Source: Naegleria gruberi
Lineage: Eukaryota
DNA: 64,000 nucleotides
NCBI GenBank assembly: GCA_000004985.1
Contig: GG738890.1
Reading direction: 5' to 3' (one strand)
Below the pieces are notes generated by a model, which was given only the letters and a program-made list of their open reading frames with translations, ran no database searches and was not told the origin of the DNA. The first letter of the stretch is position 1, and the number at the start of each line of letters is the position of its first letter. Of the stretch, positions 1,941-48,025 are shown in pieces. Both the position numbers and the translations under genes were made by a program.

Positions 1941-2266
1941 TTTAAACAACACAAAGTAGTAACTATGATGATAATAATATGTTAAATAATAATAACTTTT
2001 CCACACAAAAGAGATCTTTGATCAACAATTTAATTTGTTTGTTTTTTTTTAATTTCTCCGTATGGAACGTGAGTGATTGATTACATACAGTGAATCAAAA
2101 TCTTTGATCGTATTGTGCTATCAATGTATATTTAATTATTATTGATTGAATAGATTCATTTGATCAATAGTTTCTTGGTAGAATGTTCAATATTTCGGAG
2201 ATTAAACTCCTGAAAATAATCATCAACATCACATTAACTTTCATCTGTAGAATCAATTAAAAAAAA

Positions 2267-3796
2267 ATGATGAGATATCATTCTAATAAAACTCATCATT
2301 TTATTATAAAAATAATAATACTATTAAATATATTTATATTATTTAATTTATTAATAACATGTCATTGTTATTTAGTAATTAATAATAATAATAATTCTAA
2401 TAATAATAATTTTAATAATAATAATGAAATAATAATAAATTCAACTAATATAAATTATTCAATTGATAGATTAGATTGGAACCAAAGAATTCCATTTAAA
2501 AATCCCAAATTAATAATTTATTGTAAAAATAAAGAATGTGTACAAAAATGGATAAAATATGTAAAAATAAATGAAATTCCATTTAGAATTAGAAGTGGTA
2601 AACATTCATATGAATATTATAGTGTAGTTGATAATGGAATTGTAATTGATGTTTCATTAATTAATTTTATTGAATTAAATGAAAATTTTATAAAATTAGG
2701 ACCTGGAAATAGAAATTTTGATATTTATAACTATTTATGGAAATATAATTATGCATTTACAGGTGGTACATGTCCAACTGTTGGTGTTTCTGGTTTTACA
2801 TCTGGTGGTGGATTTGGATATATTTCTAGAAAATATGGATTAGCAATTGATAATTTACTAGAAATGGAAATTATTAATCATGATTCAAAATTATTAAAAA
2901 TTAATCAAACAAATGAATTTAATGATTTATTTTGGGCAATGAAAGGTGGTGGTAATGGTAATTTTGGTGTTATAGTTTCATTATCTTTTAAATTAATTAA
3001 AGCACCTAAAATGGTAATTAAATATGATTTACATTGGAATAATTATAATAATATTTATAAAGTATTTAATATTTGGCAAAAATTAGCACCTCATACAGAT
3101 AATAGATTAACAAGTCAATTTACAATTTTTAATAATTCATTTGCCTCTCAAGGTTTATTTATAGATGGTACTGAAAATGAATTAAAATTATTATTAAATA
3201 ATTTAATAGAATCGAGTAGGGAAAATATGGATCAATTAAATTTTAAAATTTATTCCTATTATGATAGTATATTAGATTATGCACAATGTAAAAATGAACA
3301 AGATTGTTTAAATGAAATGAAAAAACAACCATCTATTGAAAATCCTATTTTATATAAAACTAAAAGTTCATATGCATTTAAAGAAATACCAAAAGAAGGA
3401 ATTGATTATTTCATTGAAACTATACCAAAATTACAATTACAATCATCATCTTTTATTTGTGTACAATTTGATTCCTATGGAGGTGCAATTAGAGAGAATG
3501 ATATTAATCTTGTGAAAAGTTCATTTCCACACAGATTAGCACTCTATCATGCACAATATATGATTTATTATTCAAATAGAAATGAAAGATATCAAGTTGA
3601 ACAATTTATTAATCATTTATATGATTTAACTGTTCCATTTCTATCTCCACATTCATATGTTAATTATTGTGATGCCTATTTAAAAGATTATGAATTTGCA
3701 TACTATTCAATTAACATGTTCAAATTAAGAGAATTGAAAAAGAAATATGATCCTTTCAATTTGTTTAAATATGAACAATCAATTTCATTCATTTAA
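2267..3796 (+). CDS. Secreted FAD-linked oxidoreductase, berberine-bridge-enzyme-like (PCMH-type FAD-binding domain)
   Basis: 509 aa. N-terminal signal peptide. The FAD-binding motif 'FTGGTCPTVGVSGFTSGGGFGYISRKYGLAIDNLLEMEII' is present, followed by 'WAMKGGGNGNFGVI'. The ATG sits in an aaaaaaaaATG context. Confidence 0.85.
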   Translation: MMRYHSNKTHHFIIKIIILLNIFILFNLLITCHCYLVINNNNNSNNNNFNNNNEIIINSTNINYSIDRLDWNQRIPFKNPKLIIYCKNKECVQKWIKYVKINEIPFRIRSGKHSYEYYSVVDNGIVIDVSLINFIELNENFIKLGPGNRNFDIYNYLWKYNYAFTGGTCPTVGVSGFTSGGGFGYISRKYGLAIDNLLEMEIINHDSKLLKINQTNEFNDLFWAMKGGGNGNFGVIVSLSFKLIKAPKMVIKYDLHWNNYNNIYKVFNIWQKLAPHTDNRLTSQFTIFNNSFASQGLFIDGTENELKLLLNNLIESSRENMDQLNFKIYSYYDSILDYAQCKNEQDCLNEMKKQPSIENPILYKTKSSYAFKEIPKEGIDYFIETIPKLQLQSSSFICVQFDSYGGAIRENDINLVKSSFPHRLALYHAQYMIYYSNRNERYQVEQFINHLYDLTVPFLSPHSYVNYCDAYLKDYEFAYYSINMFKLRELKKKYDPFNLFKYEQSISFI

Positions 3797-3841
3797 TCTC
3801 TTAAATCTCTCTCTTATTACTATTCAATATTCAAGAACATT

Positions 3842-5458
3842 TCAATCATATTTGAGTTTTGATAGGAATGATTCCACATCATTCGATGATGTTGATGACT
3901 CAAATAAATTTATACATAAACTATCTTCTGTTTCTACTCGTTTTCTTTTACCTGTTGTAACAGAATTAATTACACTATTCATATTTTGATGATTACTATG
4001 GGGTGGTGAAAATAGAAAGAATGAACTTGGTGATCCAAAGAAATCATCTGCTGATGATGTAAAATTATTCACATCATTAGTAGAACTACAATATCCTGTA
4101 TTTAAGAGATTAATAGATTGATTCAATTTCTTTGGAGGTGTTGAAGGTGGTGTCACTTCAATAATATCATCATCACCATCATTTAATATTTCATCTACAT
4201 GTTGATCATGTTCTTCTTCAACCTCTTCATTAGTATGATGCATATTAGTAGTAGTAGTAGTAGTATTATTAGTTGTACAAGTTGAAGTAGTAGTGGCAGT
4301 AGTAGTGGAATTCTTTTGAATAGAAGTAGTATTACAAGTTGTTTGAGAAATTGATGGAATAGAAGTAGTAGTAGTTTGATTTTGAGATGGATTAGAGTAC
4401 ATTGTTTGTGGGAAAGCATGCATATAAGGCATTTGACCACTAACAAATATTGGTGGTGGAGGGTATTGAGAAAGTGGAAGTGTTATATTTGATGAGGATG
4501 GTATTACTGAACTATTTGAATTACTTATTGTTGGAATTATACTTGAAACAATTGGTGGTGCACTACTTGTAGATGATGATATCACTACTTTAGTTGACTT
4601 TCTTCTAGATGCTCTCTTCTTCTTTTGTGCTACTACATTCGTTGTTGAATTATTAGTACTTGAATGACTATCTCTTGATAAACTAGATGGTGTTAAAGCA
4701 CTTGTTGGTTGAGTTGTAGATGTAGCAGCAGGTGATATTGTTGGAGTATTACCATTATTATTGATATTTGGATTAGTATGGTGCTGAACATTACATTGAT
4801 GATGATAGTTGCAAGTAGATGATGAAGGTGTATTATTAGTAGAATTATTAGTTGAAGTAGTGGAAGAAGAAGGAAATAATTGTGGAATGAAATGATCATT
4901 TGAAATAGTTTCTAATAGAGTTGACATTGTATTTAAAAGATGTGAAACTACTTGTTGTTTCTTAACATCTTTACAAATGGATTGAACTAGTATCTTTTTA
5001 TAATTGTTCTGATGTTGTAAATTAGATAGTGTTATATATTCTGTTAGAATACTTTCAAGTCCTTTCATTGATGAATTTGTATCAAAATCTTGCAATAATT
5101 CTTGAGATTCTTTTTGAAAGGCTTTAAATGTTTCTGTAAAGTTGGAATCTCTTAAATATTGTAATATTATAAAGGCTATTTCTCCTTTAGATACTGATGT
5201 TGCTTCTTCAAGTTGATTATTTGTTGTAGTGGTATGAGAGTAGGCTTGTTCATCATGATGATGTTGAATGTGTGTAGCAGCAGGATCATAGTAGGTTGCT
5301 GATGATGATGATGACGACGATGGATCCACACAAATAATGTTATGACCATCACTAATAATACCTGTAGCAGAAGCAGCAGCAGCCGAGGATGAATCCATAG
5401 AAGCAACAAGATTGGCGGGATAGTGATGAAGGTTATGGTGGGCTGTGGCTGCAGACAT
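3842..5458 (-). CDS. LisH-domain protein with long Ser/Thr/Asn-rich low-complexity tail
   Basis: 538 aa. The LisH-like motif 'GEIAFIILQYLRDSNFTETFKAFQKES' is present. ATG at 5456-5458. The rest of the protein is low complexity. Confidence 0.55.
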   Translation of the reverse strand: MSAATAHHNLHHYPANLVASMDSSSAAAASATGIISDGHNIICVDPSSSSSSSATYYDPAATHIQHHHDEQAYSHTTTTNNQLEEATSVSKGEIAFIILQYLRDSNFTETFKAFQKESQELLQDFDTNSSMKGLESILTEYITLSNLQHQNNYKKILVQSICKDVKKQQVVSHLLNTMSTLLETISNDHFIPQLFPSSSTTSTNNSTNNTPSSSTCNYHHQCNVQHHTNPNINNNGNTPTISPAATSTTQPTSALTPSSLSRDSHSSTNNSTTNVVAQKKKRASRRKSTKVVISSSTSSAPPIVSSIIPTISNSNSSVIPSSSNITLPLSQYPPPPIFVSGQMPYMHAFPQTMYSNPSQNQTTTTSIPSISQTTCNTTSIQKNSTTTATTTSTCTTNNTTTTTTNMHHTNEEVEEEHDQHVDEILNDGDDDIIEVTPPSTPPKKLNQSINLLNTGYCSSTNDVNNFTSSADDFFGSPSSFFLFSPPHSNHQNMNSVINSVTTGKRKRVETEDSLCINLFESSTSSNDVESFLSKLKYD

Positions 5459-5737
5459 TTTTTTTGAGTTGATTTTTCAAAGATTTGTGTAACGCAATAT
5501 TTTGGCGCGAAACTTTGGTTCTTTTGGTGTTCAGTATGAATATGGTAACTGTAAAATGATTTTGGAGCCAAAAAGAACTCTACAATTTTGGATATAGTAA
5601 TAAACAAACTCTTAGCAATTCAGATTGCTTGCAATTAATCCTGAAAAACAATGATAATAAGCAATGGAACGATAGTACTAATACTACTGAAGAATATCAT
5701 TCTGACATTTAAATATTTAATTTTACAAAAAAAAATA

Positions 5738-6145
5738 ATGCATCCACCATCTCCAATAACCATCATCATTCTCTCAATCTTTGGTATTTTAAACTTTTTC
5801 CTAATGATTCTTCTCTCCTTCATTCCTCCTTTGGCTATTTATTATATTGGAAATATATGTTGGAATAATAATTCTCATACTTTTAAAATGTTCGATTCTG
5901 AATATATAATAGATGGAGCTGATAGTCAGAGAATGGATCCGAGAGATTGTTACTTTTATAAGAAGGGAACTCTGAAGGCTTTGAAAATTTCAATCCTATT
6001 AACTTTGTGTGGTTATTTACCAGGTGTAATTTTAGTTTGGATTGTAATTGTGAGATATGAATTGTGGTGTAATGATCATCATCCTCCTTATAATTCAATA
6101 ACTGGTAGGAATGGAAGAGCTTTTGCAAAGAGTTTATTTGCATAG
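5738..6145 (+). CDS. UPF0057/Pmp3-like small membrane proteolipid with an internal ~60 aa insertion
   Basis: ATG at 5738 in an aaaaaaaaataATG context. The two Pmp3 half-motifs, 'IILSIFGILNFFLMILLSFIPPLAIYYIGNIC' and 'ISILLTLCGYLPGVILVWIVIV', are separated by a hydrophilic insert. Confidence 0.45.
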   Translation: MHPPSPITIIILSIFGILNFFLMILLSFIPPLAIYYIGNICWNNNSHTFKMFDSEYIIDGADSQRMDPRDCYFYKKGTLKALKISILLTLCGYLPGVILVWIVIVRYELWCNDHHPPYNSITGRNGRAFAKSLFA

Positions 6146-6447
6146 TATAATATATATTGATAAAATTTACCAATACTTCATCAGATACAGCTGGAATGGG
6201 AGTAATCTAACACAGAAAAGATGTGAACCAAGAAACAGCTTGAAAAGCTATTCCACAATTATCTTTATGTTGGCTTTTCATCACAACTCAAAATGGAAAC
6301 ACAATTTTAAAATTGGAAGGAAAATTGCATATTCACCAATAGATCTGTTGCTTTTGGAGAGAAACAGCTCACAAATCATTGAAAACCTTCCAGTTCACAA
6401 AAAATTGAAATGGTGCATTTATTCAAAGCACAAAAGAAAAAGACACA

Positions 6448-6940
6448 ATGTATGAGAAGAAACGAAAGCAAACTCTTGTTGAAAAGTATCCACTTGTATT
6501 TACTGCCTCTTCATTGAATATGATTTATTATGTTATCACTGCCTTGAGGGTAGGAAGAGCCAGATCAAAATATGGTGTTTTTGCTCCTGCTGTTTCAGGT
6601 AAGGTTTCTAATAATTTCACTTTCGAATATTTGTTTCGTACTACATGTAGGTCATCCTGAATTTGAAAAAGCTTTAAGAATTCAAATGAATGGTCTTGAA
6701 TATCTACCAGTTGTCATAACCTCCATGTGGTCAACTGCTTTAATAACTCAAAATGATGTCTTGGCAGGTGGCATGGGATTAACCTATCTCTCTGGAAGAA
6801 TATTATATGGAATAACATATCCAGATAAAAGAAGAGCTGGATTCTTGACACTCTTCTTCTCAATGCTAGGCTTGTTGGGAATTACAACTTTTTATTCAGT
6901 TGATGGACTTGTTAAAAAGTATTCGAATAAATTAAAATAA
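6448..6940 (+). CDS. MAPEG family protein (microsomal glutathione S-transferase 3-like), 2 exons
   Basis: Exon 1 is 6448..6598 and exon 2 is 6651..6940. The phase-1 intron 6599..6650 runs gtaaggtttct...acatgtag. The spliced product 'MYEKKRKQTLVEKYPLVFTASSLNMIYYVITALRVGRARSKYGVFAPAVSG/GHPEFEKALRIQMNGLEYLPVVITSMW...GRILYGITYPDKRRAGFLTLFF' matches the MGST3 architecture. Confidence 0.8.
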
Positions 6941-7182
6941 ATGTTTAAAATTCTATTAGATGAAACAATGATTATGCAAATGTTTCAATCAATAAATTGA
7001 TATTCTAATAAGATTATGAGTTATAATGGAAACTGGATGCAGAAACTTTTTGCAAAACTTAATAACTGGTAATATTACCTATTATTGCTGATGTTTATTC
7101 TATTTCAATTTTTATCAAAATAAATTGTAATCATCTATTCCAACAAACTTTAGTAAGGAAGAAAAAACAAGCATTTAAAAAA

Positions 7183-7893
7183 ATGAAACCTCATCCTCAT
7201 ACTCTTGGATCTAGTAAAACTGATTTCAATGATGATTGTAGTAGTGGTGATGGTAGTAGTAGTGATGGTAGCACTTGTATTAACGGTAGTAAACTATTAT
7301 CATATATTCAAATCCATACTGAATATGAAAATATGGTATCAATTTATAATTCCATGCATAAAGTGAATGATTTAATTCAACAAGCCTTTAAAATTTATAA
7401 ATTCATTTCAACAAGTCCACAATTAAATTCTGATACAATTTTATTAGAAAAGTGGAGAAGAAAAGCATTTTGTAAAGGTAAAGAATCATTTATTATTATC
7501 GGAAGAATGTATGAAAATGGAAATGATAAATTAATTGGCAAAGATTTAAATATTGCACTTGAATATTATTTAAAATCAGATTCAGCAAGTTTAATTGGTA
7601 AAATTTATAAGAAATTAGGAGAATATTCTAAAGCTTTTGAATGTTATTTAAATGCTTTTGAAAATGGAAATGCTAAAACTGAATTAAAATTAGCAAGATT
7701 ATATTCAAAATATTTACAAAATGAAAAATCAAAACCTTTAAATGATGAAATGTTATTGAAAATTAGTAAATCTTTAATTGTAAATAAGAGATTTGAAGAA
7801 GCAAACAAATTAATGAAATATGTTAATGATAAGACTACCAGTGATTCAATTGTTATTCAATTTTATATTCAAAAGATAATATTAACCAATTAA
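7183..7893 (+). CDS. Sel1-like (TPR-like) repeat protein
   Basis: 236 aa. The Sel1-like repeats are 'KAFCKGKESFIIIGRMYENGNDKLIGKDLNIALEYYLKS' and 'ASLIGKIYKKLGEYSKAFECYLNAFENGNAKTELKLARLYSK'. Confidence 0.6.
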   Translation: MKPHPHTLGSSKTDFNDDCSSGDGSSSDGSTCINGSKLLSYIQIHTEYENMVSIYNSMHKVNDLIQQAFKIYKFISTSPQLNSDTILLEKWRRKAFCKGKESFIIIGRMYENGNDKLIGKDLNIALEYYLKSDSASLIGKIYKKLGEYSKAFECYLNAFENGNAKTELKLARLYSKYLQNEKSKPLNDEMLLKISKSLIVNKRFEEANKLMKYVNDKTTSDSIVIQFYIQKIILTN

Positions 7894-8018
7894 ATAACAA
7901 GTAGAAGATCTAGTGTAATTGGATCTAGAATTGGAATAATAATGAACTATTTAAATAATATTATAACAATATTCATGGATTGAATTGAATGAAATGTCAA
8001 TAGTAACATCAAACAAGT

Positions 8019-9459
8019 TTATTCTTGTTTTGATTTTTTAAGTTCTGGTTCTTCAACTGAACTTTCTAATGAAAGTTTTGCCAATTGTAAAGCACTTTCA
8101 TAAGACTTTGCACCACCAATGAAACCAGAAGCATGTACAAAAATACAACCAGGAATTCCAGATTTTTGACTTAATTCTTCATCTCTAATACCTCTCCAAT
8201 CCTTATGAAGTGGAACACGTGATGTAAATGAAGATTCAGATTGTGGAACAGCTTGAACTCTCCAATCACCTTTAACATCTTGGAAAAGAGCAAATTTAAT
8301 TGATCCAATTGAATTTGTCTTTTCTTCTAAAACATATAAATGAGCTTTCCATGGACAAAATTGATCAAATAATACAATTTCACCTGATGAATCAACTTGA
8401 AATCTACTATTAAAAGCTCTTTCAACAATTTGATAAGCAGGAAGCCAATCATCAACATAGAAAGATAAACTTTCTAAAAATTCAGAACGTGTTAATTCAA
8501 TTGCTTTAGAAAATCCTAAATTTAAACTTTCATCTGTTGATGGTTGATTCCATTTTGGATTAAATCTTGAAACACGATTTGGAAGTGTTGTTGTAATTTT
8601 ATATTTCAATTCTCCATCTGAAACTTCAATACCATTATCATTGGCCTATTATTATGTTTTTTTTAATAATCATTTAATATTATATTAATATTATATTATA
8701 ATTATTATTATAAGTATATTAATAAATAATATTAATAAATAATAATAAAAATAATAATAATACATACATCAATATGTTCAATAAAATTAGCATACATTCT
8801 TAAATAAATATCATCTTTTTGATCAATTGTTGCCTTTTCACCAACTAATTCTTCAATAATTTGTCTTCCAAAATGTTTATAAATTAAACCAGCACTTGAT
8901 AATCTAATCTTATTAAATTTATCATTATCAAATGTATCTTTAAATGATGCTTGATGATGATCATAACGATGTTTTTGTGCATCATAAATAGCTCCAACAT
9001 CAACTATAATATCACATTGTGAAAGAATTGTTTCATCTCTTGTACGAATAACAATACCATCTTGATATTCTTTTAATAAACTTAATAATCCAATTGCTAA
9101 TGATTCATCACAATGAAATGATCCACTATGTGTACCAATCTTTTTAGTTTCAGACTATTTTTTGATCATGATGATGTGATTATGTTGGTGATTGATTAAT
9201 ATGAATAAATATTAAAGTAATCGGATAATGATGATGAATAAAGTATTATATAAACACATACTGATAAATCTTGTGGAATGTTAGAAACAACTTTATAAGC
9301 TACTCCTGAATTCATTCTATTATTATGAAAGGATCTTTTACTATTATTATTTAATATTGATGATGATGATACTATTATATTCTTTCCAATAGTAATTGCA
9401 ATTCTACTACTACTACTATTAGATGAAGATGTATTGTTCAATATTTTTTTTAAAAACAT
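8019..9459 (-). CDS. MYG1/UPF0160 family metal-dependent protein hydrolase, 3 exons
   Basis: Exons: 9262..9459 (presequence-like 'MFLKKILNNTSSS...'), 8768..9154 ('SETKKIGTHSGSFHCDESLAIGLLSLLKEYQDGIVIRTRDETILSQCDIIVDVGAIYDAQKHRYDHHQ...') and 8019..8645 ('ANDNGIEVSDGELKYKITTTLPNRVSRFNPKW...HASGFIGGAKSYESAL'). Both introns begin gtatgt and end tag. The IGTH(x)G(x)FHCDE motif is diagnostic of MYG1. Confidence 0.8.
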
Positions 9460-9639
9460 TTTTTAATCAATTTCAAAATTGAATTTTATTTTTTATTAGT
9501 AAGAATCCTTTGACAATACAGAGGCGGGCCTGCAATTTGGTAGTCTTTGTAATGTTTTAAAAAAAAATGTAACAACACTGAACCTAGCATATCACTCTGC
9601 TGGTTACTCATCACAAACAAACAACAAAAAAACAATCAA

Positions 9640-10452
9640 ATGCCAGCCACCATCAAAACAATCAAGAGTAGAAAAAACTGTACTAACTACTTCATCAATT
9701 ACGATCGTGAATTCTTTGAACAACAACAAGAGAAGAAAACCAAGACACCAAAAGAGAAGGTATCGAAGGGGAGGGTTGTATCAAGTAGAGGAATCAAGAA
9801 GAGCAGAAAGAGTAATATCTCCAAGAAATTCAGAGAACCAGTTTGGGTAAAGAGAGTAAAGGCTCACCAAACCAAAGTTCAATCCATTCGTTCGTTCAAG
9901 CCTAATCCAATTGATAGAGCAGAGTTTGATAATTGCTTGAAGGAGATGAGTTTAAGAACTGGTAAACCATTTAATAGTGATACGGAAGTGTATGAATATT
10001 TAGAAAGAAGATGGAATGAGTTTTCTTTTGATGCTGTCAAGGTTCTTTGTGCTAATTTGCAACCAGGTGACGTCAAGTGGGGATACAAGTTACATTTAGG
10101 TACCATTTCTTATGCTATTTTGGATAGAATTTTGTGTTTGAACCATAATTGCAAGAAGGAGATTATTGATATCGAACAAACCATTAATAGAGAGAAAGTT
10201 CCAACCCGTATCTTCAAGTATCACTTTATGAAGGAGTGTGGATTTCCAAAATTCAAGTCAAGTTATGATTGGACTTTCAATTTGCTATTTCCAGATGAGG
10301 AAAAATCTTATCTCCAAATTTGTGAGTACACAGCCATGACATTGGTTTGTAATGACTATGATAACAGAGTATATGTTAATTGGGAAATGTCTTGTCATTC
10401 AATGAAATGTTACGATAATTTCGATTTTGGTTATTGGATGATAAGTAATTAA
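9640..10452 (+). CDS. Hypothetical protein (270 aa), no recognisable domain; C-ending-codon-rich 5' half, atypical start context
   Basis: Intact ATG-initiated ORF inside the compositionally atypical block. The start context is caaATGcc, not the usual aaaaATG. Confidence 0.4.
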   Translation: MPATIKTIKSRKNCTNYFINYDREFFEQQQEKKTKTPKEKVSKGRVVSSRGIKKSRKSNISKKFREPVWVKRVKAHQTKVQSIRSFKPNPIDRAEFDNCLKEMSLRTGKPFNSDTEVYEYLERRWNEFSFDAVKVLCANLQPGDVKWGYKLHLGTISYAILDRILCLNHNCKKEIIDIEQTINREKVPTRIFKYHFMKECGFPKFKSSYDWTFNLLFPDEEKSYLQICEYTAMTLVCNDYDNRVYVNWEMSCHSMKCYDNFDFGYWMISN

Positions 10453-13400
10453 ATTTTAATTTTCTCTTAATTATTAATATTGTTTTGAAATATTTCGAAC
10501 TGACTTGCAAATTTGTAAATAATTATTTGGAAATGGATTTGGAGTGGAATTATTTCATCAATTAATGTACTTGGAATGAATTTAGGATAATTTGAAATTA
10601 TTGGAATTAATTTTAATTTTGGATACATGTAGAAATTAGATAATTTTTGGATCGTTGAATTATATTATATAACAGGTAAGATTTGTCTCCCTTATTTCAT
10701 TTTGTAAAATTATCTTATAGGATGGTTCTGAATAATTTAGTGAAAAGACAACTACTGTCTAAATGGGTTTAAAAAGTGGATGTCAATTGGCACTATCAGT
10801 GAATTAGCTATTAATATTTTATCCAAACTGGAATAATATTTAAGGTAAATCAACTTATTCAAGAGTGATGTCATTTCATTTTGAAATGAGTAATTTGTTA
10901 CTTTGGCTTCATAATCCTCATACAAGGTATTGTTATTGAGAGCTTACATATGATTGGAGAATATTACCAACAGTTCCAAGATCTTATTGAATGAGGAGTA
11001 TATTTGTAAAGAGAGTTTGACCATTATTAGCAATGGAATATTGTGTAATAATCAAGTTCGAATTCACTTTCGTCCAAGACGAATTTCTTAGTGACTAGTT
11101 CATTCACTTGCTATTCAGATTCAACTGGTTCGTTTTTTCAACATTAAAAAATTCCCAGTCGTCATCTCCACCTCCAACATTCTCTTCCTTTCATTTGAAC
11201 TGTTAGCACTTGATTTACAGAGATTGTATAGATAGGTTCGAAATCAGATTTGTTGGGACCATTCAAATGAGCAGATTTCATTAATTATAGAAGAAAGGTT
11301 CATGAATATTTGATTGAAAGGGACAGATAATATCTGCAAAATTATTCAACACTTATACCATTAATCGCTTATTTCGACAACCGAAAGATCAAAGAAGGTT
11401 CATAAATCCTTTCATGCAAAGAAAACATACACCCTTCCATTTACTTTGCATACTTGTTTCATCCATTGAAGAGGAAACTGTGACTTTGAAGTTGAAGAAG
11501 CGCACTTTAGAGCATTAAAAGTTGCTATGGACGAAAATTATCAAATCGAGTTATTCTGTGTAGATTCAACACTCCATTGATACCTCCTTTCCCCTCCAGT
11601 CCTTGTCGATGGATTTCAAAGTTTCCCAGCAAGTTTCACCAGATTATTCTTCAGTTTATCTCAACAAAAAACAATTCTCCAATCGAAGAAGGAATCAAGA
11701 TTGTTAGATAAACCTCTCTTCTCATTGGATAAGAATTTAGTTGAGAGCTACCAAGCAAATGAATCATTTTCTTTTCAATCTGAGTACCTTTTCCAAACTG
11801 AGTGAGTTTTTGAATGGAAATGAATGTGAATCTTTGAGCTTGAGTGAATTGGTAACTCACTTATTTGTTCTATCTTAATGAAAAGGCATTCACATAACGG
11901 TATTTCCTTCTCTAAATATTAAATCATATCTATGGAACTCTTTGAAACAGCTTGGCAAGAGTCACCACCAGCAGAAACACTACTCTGTAATTGTTTCCAA
12001 ATATGAACATTCCTAATTCAAAAATAATAATGCCAGTAGAATTTCCATAGAGACTCTTTGTTGCCTCATACAATTAGTCAAAAATCAAATATTCCAATTA
12101 ATTTTCAAATATAATATTGCATTCTTTAAATCTGATGATTGTAAAGCCTTATCTAGTTAACTTGCCAGTTATTGAGTATTGTCAAGCAGTGACTCTGATA
12201 ATTGATCATTTTGAATGCTGATTCTCTAATTGAACCCTGTTTTCTTTTAGCCCCTTGAACAAAAGTTTGAATCTTTGGAATGTATTCAACTTCAGTCAAG
12301 TTAGAAAAGACAGAAAGTACTGGAGAAGTATTTCGATGGTATTGGGAACTATTTCACAAAGCACAAAATTGAATCTTGACATTTATCAAACAAGTGCAAT
12401 CAGATCATCAAGATATTATGAAAGATGGGAAAGTTGTTAGTGGACAGTGGTTTCTCCAATATAAAAACAAGGCAGAATCTAATTGATAGAAAGTGATGAA
12501 GAATTGGGTCCATTTTGGATGAACATTTTGAAAGTTTTTGGAAGAATCGCCAATACCCAATAATTGATGCATATGAAAATTCTCTTAATAGATTACCTTG
12601 AAAGGTAGAATTAGATATGATAGTTGCTGTTTCATTGATTACATTTCTAACCTTTTTCAATGAAGTAACCAAAGGATCAGAAGTTCTATTAAGTCCAACA
12701 CAGAAAGCAATCCACAATTTGATTATTAACATTCATATTATAGTTGATAATATTCTAAAACAATATAACATACCTGAAACAAATCCATCAAACACGGAAT
12801 CTCCTCTGGCATGCCCAGAAAGAGGTTCTTCACCAAAGAGGACCCACGAGTATAATTCCAGCAATAAACTATCCAAATTTAATCATGAATTAAACAATTG
12901 ATCATCATCCAAGATATGAATTTTGATTTTATCCAATTCCAAACATGACACACTCACATTAAATCTTGTTTTCTAATCCAATTTCAGCAATATTAGAGTC
13001 TTTTTGTTGTGAATGTTGAGTAAACTCATTCAAATAAATACTTACCAAATTTACAATAAAGTTAATCTCTTCCACTAATTGGAGTGGTAAGAACAGGAAG
13101 TGATATCAATAATTCTTCGTGATGAAATATAAACTGTTAATATGTAATAAATCAAATGGACGAACACTAGCCAAACTGAAATTAGTATGAGTTAGTACTT
13201 GTTTGGAGTTTGATAGCAAGTTCTATTCAATTGATCGTCAAGTAAATTTTCTCCATAATTAATAATTCAATAAAGTGAAACAACTCTTGTTGATTACCTT
13301 ACTGATAATATGAAATTGTATAAGGATAATTGTATACAATTTATCAGTTGTGGTTTCATTCATTTCTAATTGTTGGATAAGATGAATCTTCTCTCAAATA

Positions 13401-13803
13401 AATGAGCATAATAATTATTTGATATTTAAAGATAGTGTCAATTACAATTATTAGAAATACCAACAACAAGATTAGATGATATTGAACTGTAAATTATTAA
13501 AAAGTCTAAAAAATTGTAATAAATCAGATATTATTGTTAGTATTTCTATAGTCTTTAAAACAAGTACAATAATTACATACTTTCCTTATAAAAATTTCCA
13601 TTAAATTTCGGACATTCATAACTAGTTTCATTATCGCAACTTCATATTTTAAATTTTAATATTATAATTAATATTAATTATATCATGATATATTGCTCCA
13701 ATTAAAAAACTACAATTATAATAGTAATAATTAATTGATTTTTGATGATGTAAAATTGACATGTTGAAAAGAGTGGTGCATTGTGATGATATTTTTTTTA
13801 TTG

Positions 13804-14118
13804 TTACAAGAATGAATCGTCATCAAACATGTCCAGTGAGGTTTGTGATTGATTGGGCTGTGAGGGAAAATCAAATAGCATTGAAGAAGTAACTTCACCA
13901 CAATCCAAAATTACAACATTGGGCTCAACAACTTTTGAATTCTTGTGTCGTACTTTTGGGGGAGGAATTATACAGTCTACACCTCGCTTAATACACCTAC
14001 TACATTTTGGTTTCAAGTGATCACACTTTTTATGAAGTTTGTTGCAATTAAGACAAGCCAATTCAGTTGTAATTGTGGTAGAATTCAATATCTTCTTCTT
14101 ATTGTATCTCTTTTTCAT
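13804..14118 (-). CDS. Small ORF encoding a Gal4-type Zn2Cys6 zinc-cluster motif plus acidic C-terminus
   Basis: ATG at 14116-14118. A basic stretch 'KKRYNKKK' is followed by 'CLNCNKLHKKCDHLKPKCSRCIKRGVDC', which has the C-x2-C-x6-C-x6-C-x2-C-x6-C spacing. The tail is acidic: 'DMFDDDSFL'. It could be one exon of a larger gene. Confidence 0.4.
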   Translation of the reverse strand: MKKRYNKKKILNSTTITTELACLNCNKLHKKCDHLKPKCSRCIKRGVDCIIPPPKVRHKNSKVVEPNVVILDCGEVTSSMLFDFPSQPNQSQTSLDMFDDDSFL

Positions 14119-15700
14119 TTTCTTTGGTTTTGTAATTTGCCCACATATCGAAATTCTTAATAGCCTGCTTTTTTGGATTGGTTAATGGTTGAAACTCATC
14201 TCTCTTTTTCTGACATTTATCCAAAATAACCATTGCACTTTCTGTTGGACTGCTTTTTAGCATTTCTTTTGATTCATTGTAAAACGAATCTACCATTGCT
14301 ATATATTTCTCACTCAGTGTTTTTTCCTCTCTTAACAAACCAATCCATGGCTTCTTATATTCAGTAGACATAAAAATACGTCTCCAAGGTAAAAGAACAC
14401 ACTCTGAAAATGAAGGTCTGTTGTTGGATGCTTGGTGATTAGATTTTCTTGTTGATATCAATCTTCCCAAAGCATGCATTCCTTCACACCCTTGATTCAT
14501 ATATCTTGCTAATGATCCAAACTTGTCCAGCAATTTGGGTAAATGTTCCAATATAATATGAACATAATAGCCAAATTCGAAATGAAAGGAGTCTTGATAC
14601 TCTTCTGCAATCTCTTTTAACATATTTTTCAAATGTTGTTTTCCTTCTTCAGTTGAATAGGTCCTTTCTAGTACCTGTGTTGGTGCTTCCATGTAATTAT
14701 AAATTACAGTTCTCATTAAAGTAAATAGCCTCACATGTTCTTTTGTAAACTCTTCATCTGATAATGTTTCAAAGAAAATTGATTCAAAATTTTTCAAAAT
14801 TATATCAGCTTGAGTTCCATTAATATAAGGAAGTTCAATTTCTAACTTTTCTTGCAATTGCTTGTTGGCACTTGTTTGTTTTTTAGATTCCTCTCTGAAC
14901 TTGAATTGAGAAAAAAAAGGGTATCTCTGTAATTCATTACATACTGCCTCAACACTGTCCTTTTTTAAAGGACCAAGTACTAACTTGAGTAGATTTTCAA
15001 CTATGCGTAACTTTGCATGTAATACATCCACTACCATAAAATCCAATAGAGTGTCATATTTTGCATGTTTGAGGAGTTTTTCTTGAAAGACAGGTTTTTC
15101 TTGCAAACACAAATGTCTGTTTTTGGCAGTAGCATTGCAGAATGGGCATACAAATGTTTCTCCCATCATTTTCCATAGGCCAGACATATCAGGACAAACA
15201 TATACCTTGATTTGAATTTTCTTTGTTGTTCCATTGTTAAAATCATATTCAAAACCTGATTTCGAGAGTTCATTAAGATCGGTAAATGTTTGGTTGAAAT
15301 ATTTAGAAATATCCACAGTTGTTTCCTTTCCGTGATACATATCTGTGAGGAAAGCATTGTTTCTACATTGGGTTGCCAATTTGGTGTTCAGAGGTACCAA
15401 AGCATGAATTACATCATTACCTGGTCTGCCATCCCAAAAACTTTTCAATTCTAATATATCAGATATTTCTCCTGTTACTTCTTTGATTAGGTCAACCATT
15501 AATTGAATAACACATTTCGTATCAACATGTACACAATTCTCTGAAAAGGATATATTTAATTTCTTGATAATTTCATCATTCAATTTGTATCTTTCATTCT
15601 TCAATTCATCCATTGTACATGTTATTCCATTTAAATGATGATAGCTATAAAATTCATAAAAGTGATTATCTGACATCAAGTGTTTGTCTGTGAAATACAC
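14099..15700 (-). CDS. Hypothetical 533-aa protein, Cys/His-containing, no confident family assignment
   Basis: Long ORF. The listed start is GTG, and the first ATG is about 8 codons downstream. It contains 'VCPFCNATAKNRHLC' and 'HIILEHLPKLLDKFGSLARYMNQGCEGMHALGRLI'. Codon usage (ctg, ctc, gtg, agg, cag) differs from neighbouring genes. Its 3' end overlaps the 13804..14118 ORF by 20 nt in a different frame. Confidence 0.4.
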   Translation of the reverse strand: MYFTDKHLMSDNHFYEFYSYHHLNGITCTMDELKNERYKLNDEIIKKLNISFSENCVHVDTKCVIQLMVDLIKEVTGEISDILELKSFWDGRPGNDVIHALVPLNTKLATQCRNNAFLTDMYHGKETTVDISKYFNQTFTDLNELSKSGFEYDFNNGTTKKIQIKVYVCPDMSGLWKMMGETFVCPFCNATAKNRHLCLQEKPVFQEKLLKHAKYDTLLDFMVVDVLHAKLRIVENLLKLVLGPLKKDSVEAVCNELQRYPFFSQFKFREESKKQTSANKQLQEKLEIELPYINGTQADIILKNFESIFFETLSDEEFTKEHVRLFTLMRTVIYNYMEAPTQVLERTYSTEEGKQHLKNMLKEIAEEYQDSFHFEFGYYVHIILEHLPKLLDKFGSLARYMNQGCEGMHALGRLISTRKSNHQASNNRPSFSECVLLPWRRIFMSTEYKKPWIGLLREEKTLSEKYIAMVDSFYNESKEMLKSSPTESAMVILDKCQKKRDEFQPLTNPKKQAIKNFDMWANYKTKENEKEIQ

Positions 15701-15705
15701 TGCAC

Positions 15706-16857
15706 CTAAGGGCTTAGATTTTCTTCCAATTCTGAAATTCCTATAGTTGAAAGATGATGATATAATTTCGTGAGATATCTTGGTCCTGTTGCTCCGTAAT
15801 TGGTTAATTTTTGAAAAAACTCGTCCTCATTTCTTTCATAATACCAATCCATATATGAATCTAAATTTTCACCATTAGCTTCTAAAATATCATTCAGTAG
15901 TTCAGTAATTCTCTCTCCTTTTTCATTACGTGATCTTGTTTCCAAATCTTTCATTGGTGTTGTGGATTTTCTGGTTGAGGTGGTTGTAATATGGAAGGAA
16001 TTACAGTTGTTACATTGTAAACCAGCACTCTTTTTAATTTCAATAATTGGTTTGTTTTTTGTTTTTCTACTTCTTTCATTCGAAACATCTTTTGGATTAA
16101 ATTCTTTTGACATTTCATTCACCTCATTTGAATTCTCAACCACTGTGTAGGTTTGACAATTTCTAATTTTTGTGTGTTTTTTGATTTCAGATTTGATTTT
16201 TTCGGTCTGAATTGAATTTCTCAATTGCTCATACAATTTTTCTCTCAACCATTCATGCACATCCTTTGAAATTGAACATCCTGCAGAAGTAAGGAATGAA
16301 TAAGCGGCTACTTTATCCATTATAGTGAATTTCGAATCATAAATAAGAAATGAGGGACTATTTGAGGATTGAATAGTTCTAGCCATATGACAATTTCTAT
16401 CCAATTCTTTCCTAAGATTATAATCCATCCCTAACATTGGTCCACAATTTGACAGGTCTGAATCATTGTGATTGGTAAAATCAATCATTCTAAATTTTGC
16501 AAATGTTTGAATTGGGAAAATTTTGTCAGTAGTGTTGGAGGGAAATGGTTGAAAAGAAGGTAAAATTCCATTATATACTAGACTCTGAAAGCTTGGCTGA
16601 TTTTGAGACGTATTGTATTGAGAAGAAATTTGAGAAGCCATTGGGGTACCATGTAATCCATCTTCTCCTTCATCATGCTGATCAGCTTCCATAATATCAT
16701 CACTGCCACCATTGCGTAACTCATCTCTACATTTACTGCAACAATATTTCTTCGTTTTTGGTGTTGAAGAATCGACTTCCGGTTTTAAATAAACCTTGAG
16801 AACGTATTTTGAACAAACAGAACATTGCTTTGAATGCTTCCTTTGTTTTATTGGCAT
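15706..16857 (-). CDS. Hypothetical 383-aa protein with N-terminal CxxC...CxxC zinc-ribbon-like motif
   Basis: ATG at 16855-16857. The N-terminus 'CSVCSKYVLKVYLKPEVDSSTPKTKKYCCSKCRDE' has a zinc-ribbon-like spacing. The stop lies 5 nt upstream of the next ORF, which is open in another frame for about 40 codons across the junction. Confidence 0.4.
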   Translation of the reverse strand: MPIKQRKHSKQCSVCSKYVLKVYLKPEVDSSTPKTKKYCCSKCRDELRNGGSDDIMEADQHDEGEDGLHGTPMASQISSQYNTSQNQPSFQSLVYNGILPSFQPFPSNTTDKIFPIQTFAKFRMIDFTNHNDSDLSNCGPMLGMDYNLRKELDRNCHMARTIQSSNSPSFLIYDSKFTIMDKVAAYSFLTSAGCSISKDVHEWLREKLYEQLRNSIQTEKIKSEIKKHTKIRNCQTYTVVENSNEVNEMSKEFNPKDVSNERSRKTKNKPIIEIKKSAGLQCNNCNSFHITTTSTRKSTTPMKDLETRSRNEKGERITELLNDILEANGENLDSYMDWYYERNEDEFFQKLTNYGATGPRYLTKLYHHLSTIGISELEENLSP

Positions 16858-17406
16858 TTGTTTTCTCTTAACTAGTGGAATTATTGAACTGTCACTGATC
16901 TAAATAAAAAACACTTGAAAAAAATGAAAAAAATTATCGACCTACTTTCTGACATACCACTTTGCAACAATTACAAGTCATTTATTTCGGCGTTTGGCTC
17001 GGGAAATCAATTATATTAATAATTAAAAACATGTGAATTTTTATAAAATTGAAACCGTGCTGAACCAAACACTGAAATAAGTGAGTAAATCATCACGTCC
17101 TATTTTGAATTATTTTTAGTATTAAATATTTATTTTATAAAATCCCGAAATAAATCTTTCAACAAATGATTTTTCATAAAATCCATCAATGGGTGTTTTA
17201 CTACCTAATTTCAAAATATCGCAATGTGAATACTTATAGTTTTTGAATAAATAATTTTTTTATTAGGTCACCCAATGTGACATTTTTACTTCGGCCGTTA
17301 GCAGCCGCCACTTTGGCAAACCAAATTGCACCAAAAAATGAGTTCCGACACTGCATTGGTTGTTAAATACTACTATTTAAATAGTCTATAATTATATTCA
17401 TTGTAT

Positions 17407-18510
17407 CTATTTACTTAAAGTTTTTAATAAAGAAGTTAATAAAGGATGTGAAATTGTTTTAATTCCATTTTCAAAATAACCATTATAAAATGATAAATAT
17501 CCTCCACGTTTTTTAATATCCTTAATGATATATATTAATGAATGATGATTTACTTCTATCTCTTCTTTACTATTATTATTACTACTCATATTATTATCAT
17601 TCATATTATTACCATTTATATCATTCATATTATTATTAATACTCATATCAAATGATTGAAATTGAATTCTTTTATGTATAGTTTCAATTGGATGTGTTAC
17701 TAATAATGGAATAAATGTTGATAAAGATGTAATTATTAAAGATTTAAATATTCCCTTTTTAATATTAATTAAATTATCATCTAAATATTTCTTTACAAAT
17801 TTATTTAAATAATAATAAATAGTTAAATCTAATAATTTAATTGATAAACCTGTAAAATTAATTGAATTATAAATATTTTTAGTAATATTAAATAATGAAA
17901 AATTATTCCAACAATTAATTAAATTTTCAAATAAAGATTTTGAATAAATTTTAGTTTTTGGTAAAATTAATAATTTTTCATTTTCAATTTTTAAATCTAA
18001 AATCATTTTTTCATTTTGTAAAGTATGAAATGGATATAATCCAATATTAATTAATAAATGTGATACAAAATAAGAATCAATTATTTTTCTATAAGGTGCT
18101 AATAATAAAAGTGATGAAATTCCTAAAAAGGCTTGAGGAATGAAAATATAAAAATTATAATCAATTCCTTTAAGAAATGCATAAATTCCATCACTTTTAA
18201 ATATTGTCCATATATTTAATGATTTTCCATATATTTGTTTATTTATCATAATAACTCCTATTGGATGTAATATTAATTTACTTGTTAATGAACATAATAA
18301 ATTCATAAATACTCTCTTATTTAATATTATAGAGAGAAATTCATCAGAGTTTTTTAAATGAATATCCGTTTGTTTTCTTATTCTTCTTTCAGGATGAGAA
18401 ATTTCATTTGATGATGTTGTTGTTGTTGTATTTGAATTTGTATTTGTAGTGTTATTATTATTAGTTTGACTGAATGGACCTGCAATTGGTCTCATATTAC
18501 TTTTAAACAT
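17407..18510 (-). CDS. Multi-pass membrane protein, possibly a highly divergent mitochondrial-carrier-like protein
   Basis: 367 aa with several hydrophobic segments. It has carrier-like motifs 'THPIETIHKRIQFQ' (P-x-E-x-x-x-K-R) and 'HPIGVIMINKQ', plus a poly-N/T N-terminus. The assignment is weak. Confidence 0.35.
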   Translation of the reverse strand: MFKSNMRPIAGPFSQTNNNNTTNTNSNTTTTTSSNEISHPERRIRKQTDIHLKNSDEFLSIILNKRVFMNLLCSLTSKLILHPIGVIMINKQIYGKSLNIWTIFKSDGIYAFLKGIDYNFYIFIPQAFLGISSLLLLAPYRKIIDSYFVSHLLINIGLYPFHTLQNEKMILDLKIENEKLLILPKTKIYSKSLFENLINCWNNFSLFNITKNIYNSINFTGLSIKLLDLTIYYYLNKFVKKYLDDNLINIKKGIFKSLIITSLSTFIPLLVTHPIETIHKRIQFQSFDMSINNNMNDINGNNMNDNNMSSNNNSKEEIEVNHHSLIYIIKDIKKRGGYLSFYNGYFENGIKTISHPLLTSLLKTLSK

Positions 18511-18708
18511 TTTTTTTTGAAAAAGGCTTTGAAATTAATATTAATGGCTTAAATATATTTATCTGAAAGAGATGAACCAATAACCAATATATTGGTTGAG
18601 GTGATGATAATTTTGATATATATATTATTATCAAGTATGTTGTTAATAATGGATCTTTCATTCATATTTTGTTGATAATATTTAATAATTAATAACAACC
18701 ATTAAAAA

Positions 18709-21025
18709 ATGAGTGGAGAACAAAACAAGGCTAATGATGAAGTAGAGAATACAACAACAACAATAATAACATCATCATCATCATCGGATCATAACAAGCA
18801 ACAACAACAACAATATGAAGAAATAACATGCATTGATAAAATTATAGAAACATTTCAAGATAAATGTAAACAATTTAAACAACATGTATTAAATTTGAAT
18901 ATAGCAAAACAATCATCAGAGGAAACTAAATCAATATTTATGGAAGGTTATCATAAATTATTAGAACTTCAATCACTTCAAATACAAATTAATATATTTC
19001 AAAAAAGAATGAATGATTTAAGAATTGAAAGAAAGAAGGAAATGGAACTTCCACTTTTAGAATGTAATAATTTATCATGTGAAGCTTCTTATTTTCAAAG
19101 AGATATTTCAATTTGTAAAAATTATTATTCAAGACATGTTGAAATTGATTTACCTTCTGAAGATGATGAATTTAAAAATAGAGATAAATCATCTACTATT
19201 TTATTAGAAATTGAAAAATTAAAACAATCATCATTGAATGGAATAGATTCTGAATTATTATTAAAAAAACAACATGAATTAATGATGAAAAGATTAACAT
19301 TTGAACTTGATGAAAGAGAAAAATTAGAAAAGGAAATTCTTGAAATTAAACAAGAACAAGAAAAGGCAAAACAAGAACAAGTTAATATTGAAAAATATAT
19401 TAATAATATTCCAAAGAATTTAGCTGCAATGAAAAAGACAATTCAACAATTTGAACCTGTTATTAATCCATCAAAACATCAACATACTGATTGGTTTACA
19501 AATGAAGAACTTGAATTAATGAATCAATTACCAACTCCTCTATTTATTTTATATAACAAATTAATGGAATATAAGAAAGTTTATGATGATTCAATTTTAA
19601 TATCTATAGTAGGTGATTCTGAAAGAGCTAAAACTATTTGGAATGATTCTGATTTAGATGAATCATCTTTTAATACTGTTAATAGTAATGGTAATAATAA
19701 TAGCAGTGGTGGAAGTGGTACTGGTAATAGTGGTACTAGTAATAGTGGAAGTGGTGCTGGTGCTGGTATAACACCATCATATATTGATGAATTAACAGGT
19801 GAACCAAAGAGAAAAAAGTTAAAACAAGTTGATAATAATAGTGAAATGTGTAGCATGTTTCCACTTGTTATTCAATTAAGAGTTCAACTTAAATTCTTTG
19901 GTAGGTTATTGTTTTTTAATTTATTATAATTTACATGTATTTTAATATCAACTTGATTTAATATCATCTCTTTTATCATGATATTATTATTATTATTATT
20001 ATTACTTCTACCACTACTACTATTCTATTACTACTAATTTCTTGTTATTATTATTAATAGAAAAAAATAAGAAATTATTAATTGAATTTGGATATCTTCA
20101 TAAAGCAAATATGGTAGTTGTAAATGAAGCAAGAACAGCAGCACTTGTTTTACCAACATTAATACAGGGAGATGATGGCAGTATTTCACCAAATGTTCAA
20201 TGTATGTCAGATTATGATTTTTCAACATTTGAAAGAGGAAGACCATATCGTTGGTTACAACAAATATGTGGATTAGAATTTATAAGTGCAAGAATATCAA
20301 GTAATATTTCATCTAAAGAAAATAGACCAGAAGAATCTAAAAATTATTCATTAAGTTATATTCTAAATTTATTTAAATACAAACAAAAAGCTAAAAGATA
20401 TTTGTTAAATCAATTAAAATCATTGGAATTGAATGAACCTTTAAAGAATGAATTTCCATCATGCCTTTCATTTGTACCTAAATTAGAATCATTTAAACAA
20501 ACTAATGTTACATATACTTCAATTACATTTTTAATTACAGTTAGAATTGACAAGTATTTATTTGAAAGTGAATTATTGGTAAATGTTGTGGATTATCCTT
20601 TAAAATCTCCACAATTTAAAAAATTAACTCAAATTCAACCAACAATTGAACAAACTATTCCAGAAGAATATCAAGATTTAATATGTCATGATAATTCAAT
20701 TGAAATTGTTAGAGAAGATTCTTCATGGTCAAATCCATTACTTTATCAAATAGAAAAAGATGTAAATTATTCATTTGTTTCAAAATTTAATCATAAGAAT
20801 CAATATCAACAATCACAAGATCCACAAAATATTGACCATTTTAATTTAATTTCAAATCAATTATTTAGATTAATGTCAAATTTAGCAGTTTTTGTTGAAT
20901 TGAAAAATCCAGAATCTAAAGCATTTGATACAAGGAAGTTCTTAATTGGTAAAAATCAAGATATTCCATTACAATATGATAGTAGAAATAATGTATTTAG
21001 ACATGTATTAGAAGAGGAAGAATAA
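18709..21025 (+). CDS. THO complex subunit 5 (THOC5/FMIP) homolog, 2 exons
   Basis: Exon 1 is 18709..19900 and exon 2 is 20061..21025. The phase-1 intron runs gtaggt...taatag. Conserved blocks are 'LPTPLFILYNKLMEY' (human 'LPPPLYVLFVQATAY') and 'MSDYDFSTFERGRPYRWLQQICGLEF' (human '[23 protein letters not shown]'). The N-terminal half is coiled-coil. Confidence 0.75.
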
Positions 21026-47952: not shown

Positions 47953-48025
47953 GCCCCGCTAGCTCAGTCGGTAGAGCGTTGGACTTTTAATCCAACGGTC
48001 GTGGGTTCGAGCCCCACGTGGGGCG
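47953..48025 (+). tRNA. tRNA-Lys (anticodon UUU)
   Basis: 73-nt cloverleaf 'GCCCCGCTAGCTCAGTCGGTAGAGCGTTGGACTTTTAATCCAACGGTCGTGGGTTCGAGCCCCACGTGGGGCG'. The anticodon loop is CTTTTAA. Confidence 0.8.

Follow-up and report, generated by a model that had tools for sequence, protein, structure and literature searches.

A Zn2Cys6 open reading frame in Naegleria gruberi as the probable C-terminal module of a frameshifted RAG1/Transib-fold transposase gene

The window, by which we mean the whole stretch of 64,000 nt analyzed here (contig GG738890.1 of assembly GCA_000004985.1), comes from Naegleria gruberi (Heterolobosea). The open reading frames (ORFs) flanking the locus are exact matches to NAEGRDRAFT_71319, 71333, 71340, and 71343 on a 350-kb N. 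gruberi scaffold, which contradicts the dictyostelid or amoebozoan host proposed by a sequence-only reading of the same DNA. The window also contains a convergent pair of tRNA genes 85 bp apart, tRNA-Pro(TGG) at 29710-29781 (+) and tRNA-Met(CAT) at 29867-29938 (−), as well as a tRNA-Lys(TTT) gene at 47953-48025 (+). The features of the locus are the following.

9640..10452, (+) strand: convergent partner gene NAEGRDRAFT_71319, 270 aa
10453..13803, no strand: ORF-free stretch of 3.35 kb with 67-94 stops per frame
13804..14118, (−) strand: ORF3, 104 aa with an ATG start, comprising a basic linker, a Zn2Cys6 cluster, and a short acidic tail that ends in DSFL-stop
13972..14055, (−) strand: six-cysteine Zn2Cys6 cluster, ORF3 residues 22-49, CLNCNKLHKKCDHLKPKCSRCIKRGVDC, matching PF00172
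14099..15700, (−) strand: ORF2, 533 aa, RAG1/Transib-fold DDE core
14125..14137, (−) strand: frameshift junction 2, where a surplus base in the A-run of TACAAAACCAAAG moves the reading frame by +1 to that of the Zn cluster
15706..16857, (−) strand: ORF1, 383 aa, N-terminal third of the same gene, placed by tblastn to P0006 and a three-way alignment
15709..15712 (~15710), (−) strand: frameshift junction 1, one base missing in AGCCCTTAGG, a short homopolymer run
17169..17363, (−) strand: conserved non-coding 5′ region of the unit, similar to the related L004 copy from ACAACCAATGCA (17363)

The starting point of this analysis was ORF3. We found that the cysteines of CLNCNKLHKKCDHLKPKCSRCIKRGVDC follow the spacing C-x2-C-x6-C-x6-C-x2-C-x6-C exactly, as the sequence-only reading had claimed for this ORF, and fit the PF00172 pattern C-x2-C-x6-C-x5-12-C-x2-C-x6-8-C. 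The profile check that had been named for this claim was passed, with ORF3 scoring 38.9 bits against the Pfam PF00172 Zn_clus model (gathering cutoff, 21; E = 9.4e-10). The Zn2Cys6 match is well beyond chance and, on its profile score, the ORF3 domain is a bona fide PF00172 member. Among sequences with solved structures, the nearest to ORF3 are the DNA-binding domains of S. pombe Pho7, Lac9, Gal4, and Ppr1, and P0006, P0069, P0018, and the L004 copy, four independent relatives described below, keep all six cysteines. The basic stretch and the acidic tail that had been described on either side of the motif were likewise recovered, with 6 K/R among the first 21 ORF3 residues and DMFDDDSFL at the C-terminal end. 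The segment after the sixth cysteine is proline-rich (IIPPPKVRHK), and no heptad pattern is visible in it by eye. A Pfam scan of ORF3, P0006, and P0069 revealed Zn_clus as the sole significant family, with no Fungal_trans-type middle homology region. The domain had also been regarded as rare in the host lineage, an argument that fails because C6 fingers are the dominant specific transcription-factor family in Naegleria (PMC3537659); for N. gruberi, Scazzocchio arrived at 71 Zn-cluster proteins showing “a variety of architectures” (PMC5611559). By itself, then, a Zn2Cys6 domain is ordinary in Naegleria, and the interest of this one lies in its context.

ORF1, ORF2, and ORF3 lie on the same strand and abut or overlap (frames 0, 2, and 0), with the previously noted 20-nt overlap between ORF3 and the upstream ORF (14099..15700) indeed present. 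Word-indexed homology searches using ORF3 or ORF2 alone gave no match, and the family surfaced only in an exhaustive HMMER search with ORF2, which yielded 63 relatives. The best of these, P0006 (1,232 aa, 43% identical, from a Naegleria-like assembly), carries Zn_clus at residues 1065-1102. Specifically, tblastn aligned P0006 residues 251-492 to window positions 16422-15712 (frame −2), residues 494-1023 to 15709-14102 (frame −1), and residues 1066-1111 to 14058-13921 (frame −2). The N. lovaniensis protein C9374_007600 (P0069; 1,131 aa) is laid out alike, its Zn_clus domain spanning residues 958-994, and in the fragment P0018 the core is followed by a basic linker, the C6 cluster, and an acidic tail, in this order. 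P0018 and P0010, each listed with a 6,316-bp longest contig, look like adjacent gene calls that jointly hold the core and the C6 tail, and they probably represent another split copy of the C6 subfamily, from an environmental sample.

Restoring the missing base at junction 1 produces the sequence ...ENLSPLGAVYF..., where the homologues P0006 and P0069 have ENLSALGAVYF and ENLSPEGAVYF, respectively; the restored proline agrees with N. lovaniensis. At junction 2 (sequence context, TACAAAACC), there is one surplus base, and our reconstruction skipped base 14131. The corrected protein is 1,017 aa long and stop-free, compared with 39-66 stops in the raw frames, and a three-way alignment of this protein with P0006 and P0069 is unbroken across both junctions. 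The ATG of ORF3 aligns with an internal residue of the basic linker in the homologues, and the 20-nt overlap of ORF2 and ORF3 arises because a 1-nt frameshift left it as a footprint. The sequence-only reading had seen in ORF3 a stand-alone “mini Gal4” of ~100 aa. This does not hold, since all three ORFs align in order along single proteins (1,131-1,232 aa) with a terminal Zn_clus domain and a core of the RAG1/Transib transposase fold, which is no transcription-factor scaffold. ORF3 is, with high probability, the C-terminal DNA-binding module of an ancestral gene of ~1,017 codons (13804-16857, (−) strand) for a RAG1/Transib-clade DDE transposase, which two indels have split; the window copy is most likely what remains of a low-copy mobile element after recent inactivation.

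Three other accounts of the ORF3 region were rejected. A C-terminal truncation relative to P0006 and P0069 was ruled out by the L004 copy, which ends EFDSFLK-stop at the same position; judged from these aligned ends, the short acidic end is the natural C-terminus of the C6-bearing subfamily. A programmed frameshift at junction 2 was discarded because the window would need a +1 shift and L004 a −1 shift, with different indels, and the sole GT..AG candidate for an intron at this junction spans ~23 nt. At the other end of the gene, ORF1 holds a conserved region ahead of the core and had no match among Pfam families or PDB sequences. Two of its cysteine motifs are N-terminal (C12-x2-C15 and C39-C40-x2-C43, i.e., CSVC ... 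CCSKC) and common to P0006 and P0069. An internal CNNC-x3-H motif (GLQCNNCNSFH) occurs in both of these proteins and in more distant family members. We consider that the ORF1 motifs are probably additional zinc-binding modules of the transposase.

The key residues of the core lie at the following positions, all within ORF2 on the (−) strand and identified by family conservation.

15431-15433: D90
15188-15190: D171
15137-15148: C185/C188
15017-15019: H228
14543-14560: H381/H386
14483-14485: E406

Comparison of 17 sequences revealed that D171, C185-x2-C188, H228, H381-x4-H386, and E406 are invariant, and all of them are found in the window copy. D90 lies in a K-x3-DGR motif, and the window copy has the D90/D171/E406 triad that is conserved among family members. 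According to Kojima, a D, D, E triad combined with two cysteines and three histidines is the signature of the CACTA/Mirage/Chapaev/Transib/RAG1 (“CMCT”) clade (PMC12730594). At the sequence level, ORF2 contains the triad together with the C(2)C and H(4)H zinc ligands of this definition.

When ORF2 alone was compared with Pfam, there was no match at E ≤ 1, including RAG1 (PF12940). The Pfam RAG1 model was matched by 4 of the 64 family members (best E, 6.1e-6), and the CACTA, Plavaka, and KDZ models by none of the 64. The family profile retrieved RAG1 and amphioxus RAG1L chains from the PDB with a borderline E-value of 0.0014 over the segment YFHKTLAHVP...EGNE, aligning ORF2 E406 with RAG1 E962; in RAG1, this segment carries H937, H942, and E962, by the established numbering. 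An AlphaFold (AF2) model of ORF2 based on 17 sequences reached a pLDDT of 80.4 and a pTM of 0.81. Foldseek searches of the PDB with this model returned 49 significant matches, all of them RAG1, BbRAG1L, or HzTransib (best E, 5e-11; TM, ~0.57), followed by the next match at an E-value of 0.13. In a structural comparison, which was made with PDB structures and hence includes no CACTA, Chapaev, or Mirage structure, the model scored as follows.

RAG1: 21.6 (402 residues aligned)
RAG1L: 20.8
P element transposase: 12.2
Apo Transib: 11.6
Other DDE enzymes: 8.2 or less

As modeled, the gene body is a RAG1/Transib-fold DDE transposase with the motifs of the CMCT definition. Because ORF2 has no Pfam match and the sequence link to RAG1 is borderline, this classification rests mainly on fold and motifs. 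On this classification, Heterolobosea harbor a DDE transposase family of the RAG1/Transib fold, and an amoebozoan has relatives of it. In one branch of the family, the C-terminus bears a C6 finger and the small convergent partner gene has been retained.

The closest relative of the window copy is found on the L004 contig, from a Naegleria ~72% identical to the window at the DNA level. The L004 copy is internally deleted, with the counterpart of window positions 13940-14915 fused to that of the 5′ non-coding segment 17169-17339 and ~2.25 kb of coding sequence missing. It has many further frameshifts and is surrounded by unrelated genes. In addition, a 1.57-kb insert encoding an RNase_H-domain protein (from ~3655-3670 to ~5235-5250) interrupts this copy and is flanked by a duplicated 16-nt sequence, TTTTTTAGTGCTAAAT; its structure resembles that left by a retroelement inserting with a long target-site duplication. 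The similarity between L004 and the window begins abruptly at window position 17363 (ACAACCAATGCA) and fades ~30 nt past the stop codon. Between the two copies, dN/dS is ~0.15 in the core (dN, 0.151; dS, 1.04) and ~0.3 in the Zn cluster, while wrong-frame controls lack the synonymous excess. Over most of the time since they split, both lineages therefore evolved as functional coding DNA. The frame break ahead of the Zn cluster is +1 in the window and −1 in L004, caused by different indels, and thus reflects independent decay in the A-rich linker. Among public N. gruberi proteins, the exhaustive HMMER search found none that covers the locus (best match, 43% identical), with ORF1 and ORF3 absent. 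On balance, we favor the view that the window copy is a very recent pseudogene over that of an intact gene with two assembly errors. If it is an inactivated relic, the Zn2Cys6 ORF is not expressed within a functional protein, unless the indels are assembly errors.

Several observations on the wider family suggest, on comparative sequence grounds, that the locus is a mobile element. Sister subfamilies are multi-copy: the N. gruberi members 76258 and 70118 are near-identical (at least 90%) on different scaffolds, and three near-identical paralogues (at least 90%) lie on three contigs in N. lovaniensis. Many of the 63 HMMER relatives are fragments, and apart from the partner gene, which accompanies the transposase gene, the neighbors differ between loci (window, L001, L002, and L004). 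The most telling observation is the L004 copy, internally deleted and repeatedly frameshifted, in which the 5′ non-coding region is kept. RepeatModeler annotated 38 “CMC-EnSpm” repeats in N. lovaniensis (PMC6125883). The C6-bearing subfamily appears low-copy, with one to two copies seen per genome, which is also compatible with a domesticated host gene. Because neither terminal inverted repeats (TIRs) nor target-site duplications (TSDs) were found, mobility is something we infer only. Specifically, blastn-short and pattern searches of the window, L001, L002, and L004 for TIRs of the form 5′-CA..TG-3′ and for TSDs of 2-5 bp, covering one copy per genome, gave none. Repeat finding in the window and in its 10-18.5 kb portion returned only AT-rich, low-identity pairs, and no significant match emerged when the unit flanks of the window, L001, and L002 were compared by blastn-short. 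Considered as termini, an 11-mer inverted pair (9531/17320) was at chance level and not conserved, and a candidate 5′ end, ACAACCAATGCAGTG, had no inverted partner.

Two further relatives also fit mobile-element behavior. An N. fowleri family fragment (L003; VFQX01000007.1, contig end) lies among rve integrase, RVT_1, and Exo_endo_phos genes, a retroelement cluster (1546-20867) that suggests a repeat-rich subterminal region. In the distant relative P0019 (Logan contig, 915 aa), a C-terminal Ulp1 protease (Peptidase_C48) replaces the Zn2Cys6 finger; the Ulp1 protease domain is often captured by DNA transposons.

The partner gene, NAEGRDRAFT_71319, is 43-47% identical to homologues at L001 (13543-14403), L002 (8118-8990), and L004 (2030-2194, a fragment), all on the (−) strand. 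Physical linkage with the RAG1-like gene is seen in four genomes, two of which show a convergent arrangement: the homologues (265-290 aa) lie 46-145 bp downstream of the full-length transposase genes of L001 and L002. We found no match for the partner gene, and no Kelch, in Pfam or among PDB sequences, and its single-sequence structure model had a pLDDT of 37.6, too low to use. In the window, the transposase gene and its partner are separated by 10453-13803. The locus had been described earlier as part of an “atypical block.” In composition, it is not atypical, as GC between 10 and 17 kb (0.26-0.34, including the ORF-free stretch) is like that of the coding parts of the window; the 3.35 kb free of ORFs at 10453-13803 is indeed unusual. 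By tblastx and blastn, this stretch resembled neither any other part of the window nor any of the four related loci; it could represent an ancient insertion or the remains of a gene.

The main competing explanation is an intact, functional 1,017-aa gene whose frameshifts are draft-assembly errors; the Zn2Cys6 cluster would then form the C-terminal part of an expressed protein, either an active transposase or a transposase derivative. We regard this as possible, if on the unlikely side. Both indels are single-base and fall in short homopolymer runs, the corrected frame stays stop-free over 1,017 codons of AT-rich DNA (against 39-66 stops uncorrected), and the catalytic and zinc-ligand residues are all present; strong purifying selection relative to L004 and the proline at junction 1, which once restored equals the N. 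lovaniensis residue, argue in the same direction. However, two errors in 1.6 kb would be unusual for a Sanger assembly, the HMMER search found no N. gruberi protein covering the locus, and the closest relative, L004, is clearly decayed, with its own indels in the same A-rich linker. For these reasons, recent inactivation remains our preferred reading of the window copy.

A more doubtful proposal is that the C6-tailed family is a domesticated, transposase-derived host gene, acting as a recombinase or as a transcription factor with an acidic tail, of which the window copy is a decaying paralogue. The low copy number of the C6 subfamily, intact full-length ORFs in N. lovaniensis and in the L002 assembly, linkage of the partner gene in four genomes, a dN/dS far under 1, the negative TIR and TSD searches, and the standing of C6 fingers as the main transcription-factor family of Naegleria are all consistent with domestication. 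It is opposed by flanking genes that, except for the partner, differ at every locus, by the common occurrence of decayed, deleted, and fragmentary copies, and by sister subfamilies with near-identical copies on separate contigs. The fully conserved catalytic triad also counts against it, though taken alone it is compatible with domestication. Translation of ORF3 by itself from the ATG at 14118, giving a Zn2Cys6 factor that consists of little more than its DNA-binding domain and serves as a small activator or as a repressor competing for transposase sites, strikes us as very improbable. ORF3 does have an in-frame start codon (ATG) and contains the whole DNA-binding domain as well as the acidic end, and transposase derivatives reduced to the DNA-binding domain are an accepted route to regulators (PMC1702500), which provides a precedent. 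Nevertheless, this ATG matches an internal linker residue of the full-length homologues, the start of ORF3 falls within ORF2, the ORF3 protein is absent from the public protein sets searched, and the same segment of L004 is merely an out-of-frame remnant.

Taking the transposase reading as the basis, an intact copy would work as follows. Its RNase H-like core would cleave and join DNA in the manner of RAG1 and Transib. By analogy with other transposases, the Zn2Cys6 module most likely targets the enzyme to DNA: the finger would anchor it sequence-specifically to the ends or subterminal sites of the element itself, which probably contain CGG, in a role comparable to that of BED, THAP, or WRKY fingers or of the RAG1 nonamer-binding domain. 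The basic linker, a probable nuclear-localization or DNA-contact segment, may help nuclear import or DNA contact, the acidic tail could be autoinhibitory or make protein contacts, and the small convergent partner may be an accessory factor. A possible binding site for the finger, which we treat as a weak lead, is provided by the non-coding, locally GC-rich positions 17292-17347 (GC, 0.45) within the 5′ region conserved with L004, where four CGG/CCG triplets, including CGGCCG, tie for the highest density per 100 nt in the 64 kb; only one of these triplets is kept in L004.

Relative to RAG1, amphioxus RAG1L (ProtoRAG), and Transib (PDB 4wwx, 6b40, and 6pqn), identity is ~11%, and the unit occurs in a heterolobosean protist. 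Its predicted module for sequence-specific DNA binding is a Zn2Cys6 finger at the C-terminus, whereas RAG1 has an N-terminal nonamer-binding domain, and the RSS-like TIRs and 5-bp TSDs of RAG1/Transib systems were not found around the window unit. The ProtoRAG unit pairs RAG1L with a convergent gene for a Kelch-propeller RAG2L; the convergent partner in L001 and L002 and its homologue in the window show no Kelch/RAG2 signal by sequence. The unit also departs from CMCT elements of the CACTA type in that the Pfam CACTA and Plavaka models are unmatched and neither CA..TG termini nor 2-5 bp TSDs were identified. The finger itself resembles those of Gal4, Ppr1, Pho7, and Lac9 in its canonical six-cysteine spacing, its basic residues between Cys2 and Cys3, and the proline before Cys4. 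Unlike in fungal Gal4-type factors, however, the finger is C-terminal rather than N-terminal in all full-length homologues and is joined to a transposase core instead of forming an independent gene, with no middle-homology region, no coiled-coil dimerization element evident by eye, and Naegleria as its host. A parallel is offered by WRKY/FLYWCH domains in MULEs, BED in hAT elements, and THAP in P elements, all of which combine a DDE core with a small zinc-chelating, sequence-specific domain. In the same host, a domain of this type also serves for DNA binding in a transcription-factor family that has expanded in the lineage (PMC1702500, PMC3537659). The present case differs from these transposases both in the fold of its finger, a C6 binuclear cluster, and in the transposase clade, and the literature we searched contains no description of a Zn_clus/C6 finger paired with this type of transposase.

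Through the combination of a C6 finger with a RAG1-fold transposase, the DNA-binding domain that dominates among Naegleria transcription factors is tied to an enzyme of mobile elements. For annotation, the analysis brings to light a frameshifted transposase locus that the N. gruberi reference leaves unannotated. As a speculation that we hold to be quite unlikely, Naegleria RAG1-fold transposons with Zn2Cys6 targeting and a convergent accessory gene could have been a vehicle or source of the C6 transcription-factor expansion, and the partner could be a functional analogue of RAG2. If true, this would be a route from transposon to transcription factor, as has been shown for WRKY and MULE. The locus provides a concrete and testable case of DNA-binding domains moving between transposons and regulators, and of RAG1-like machinery beyond animals.
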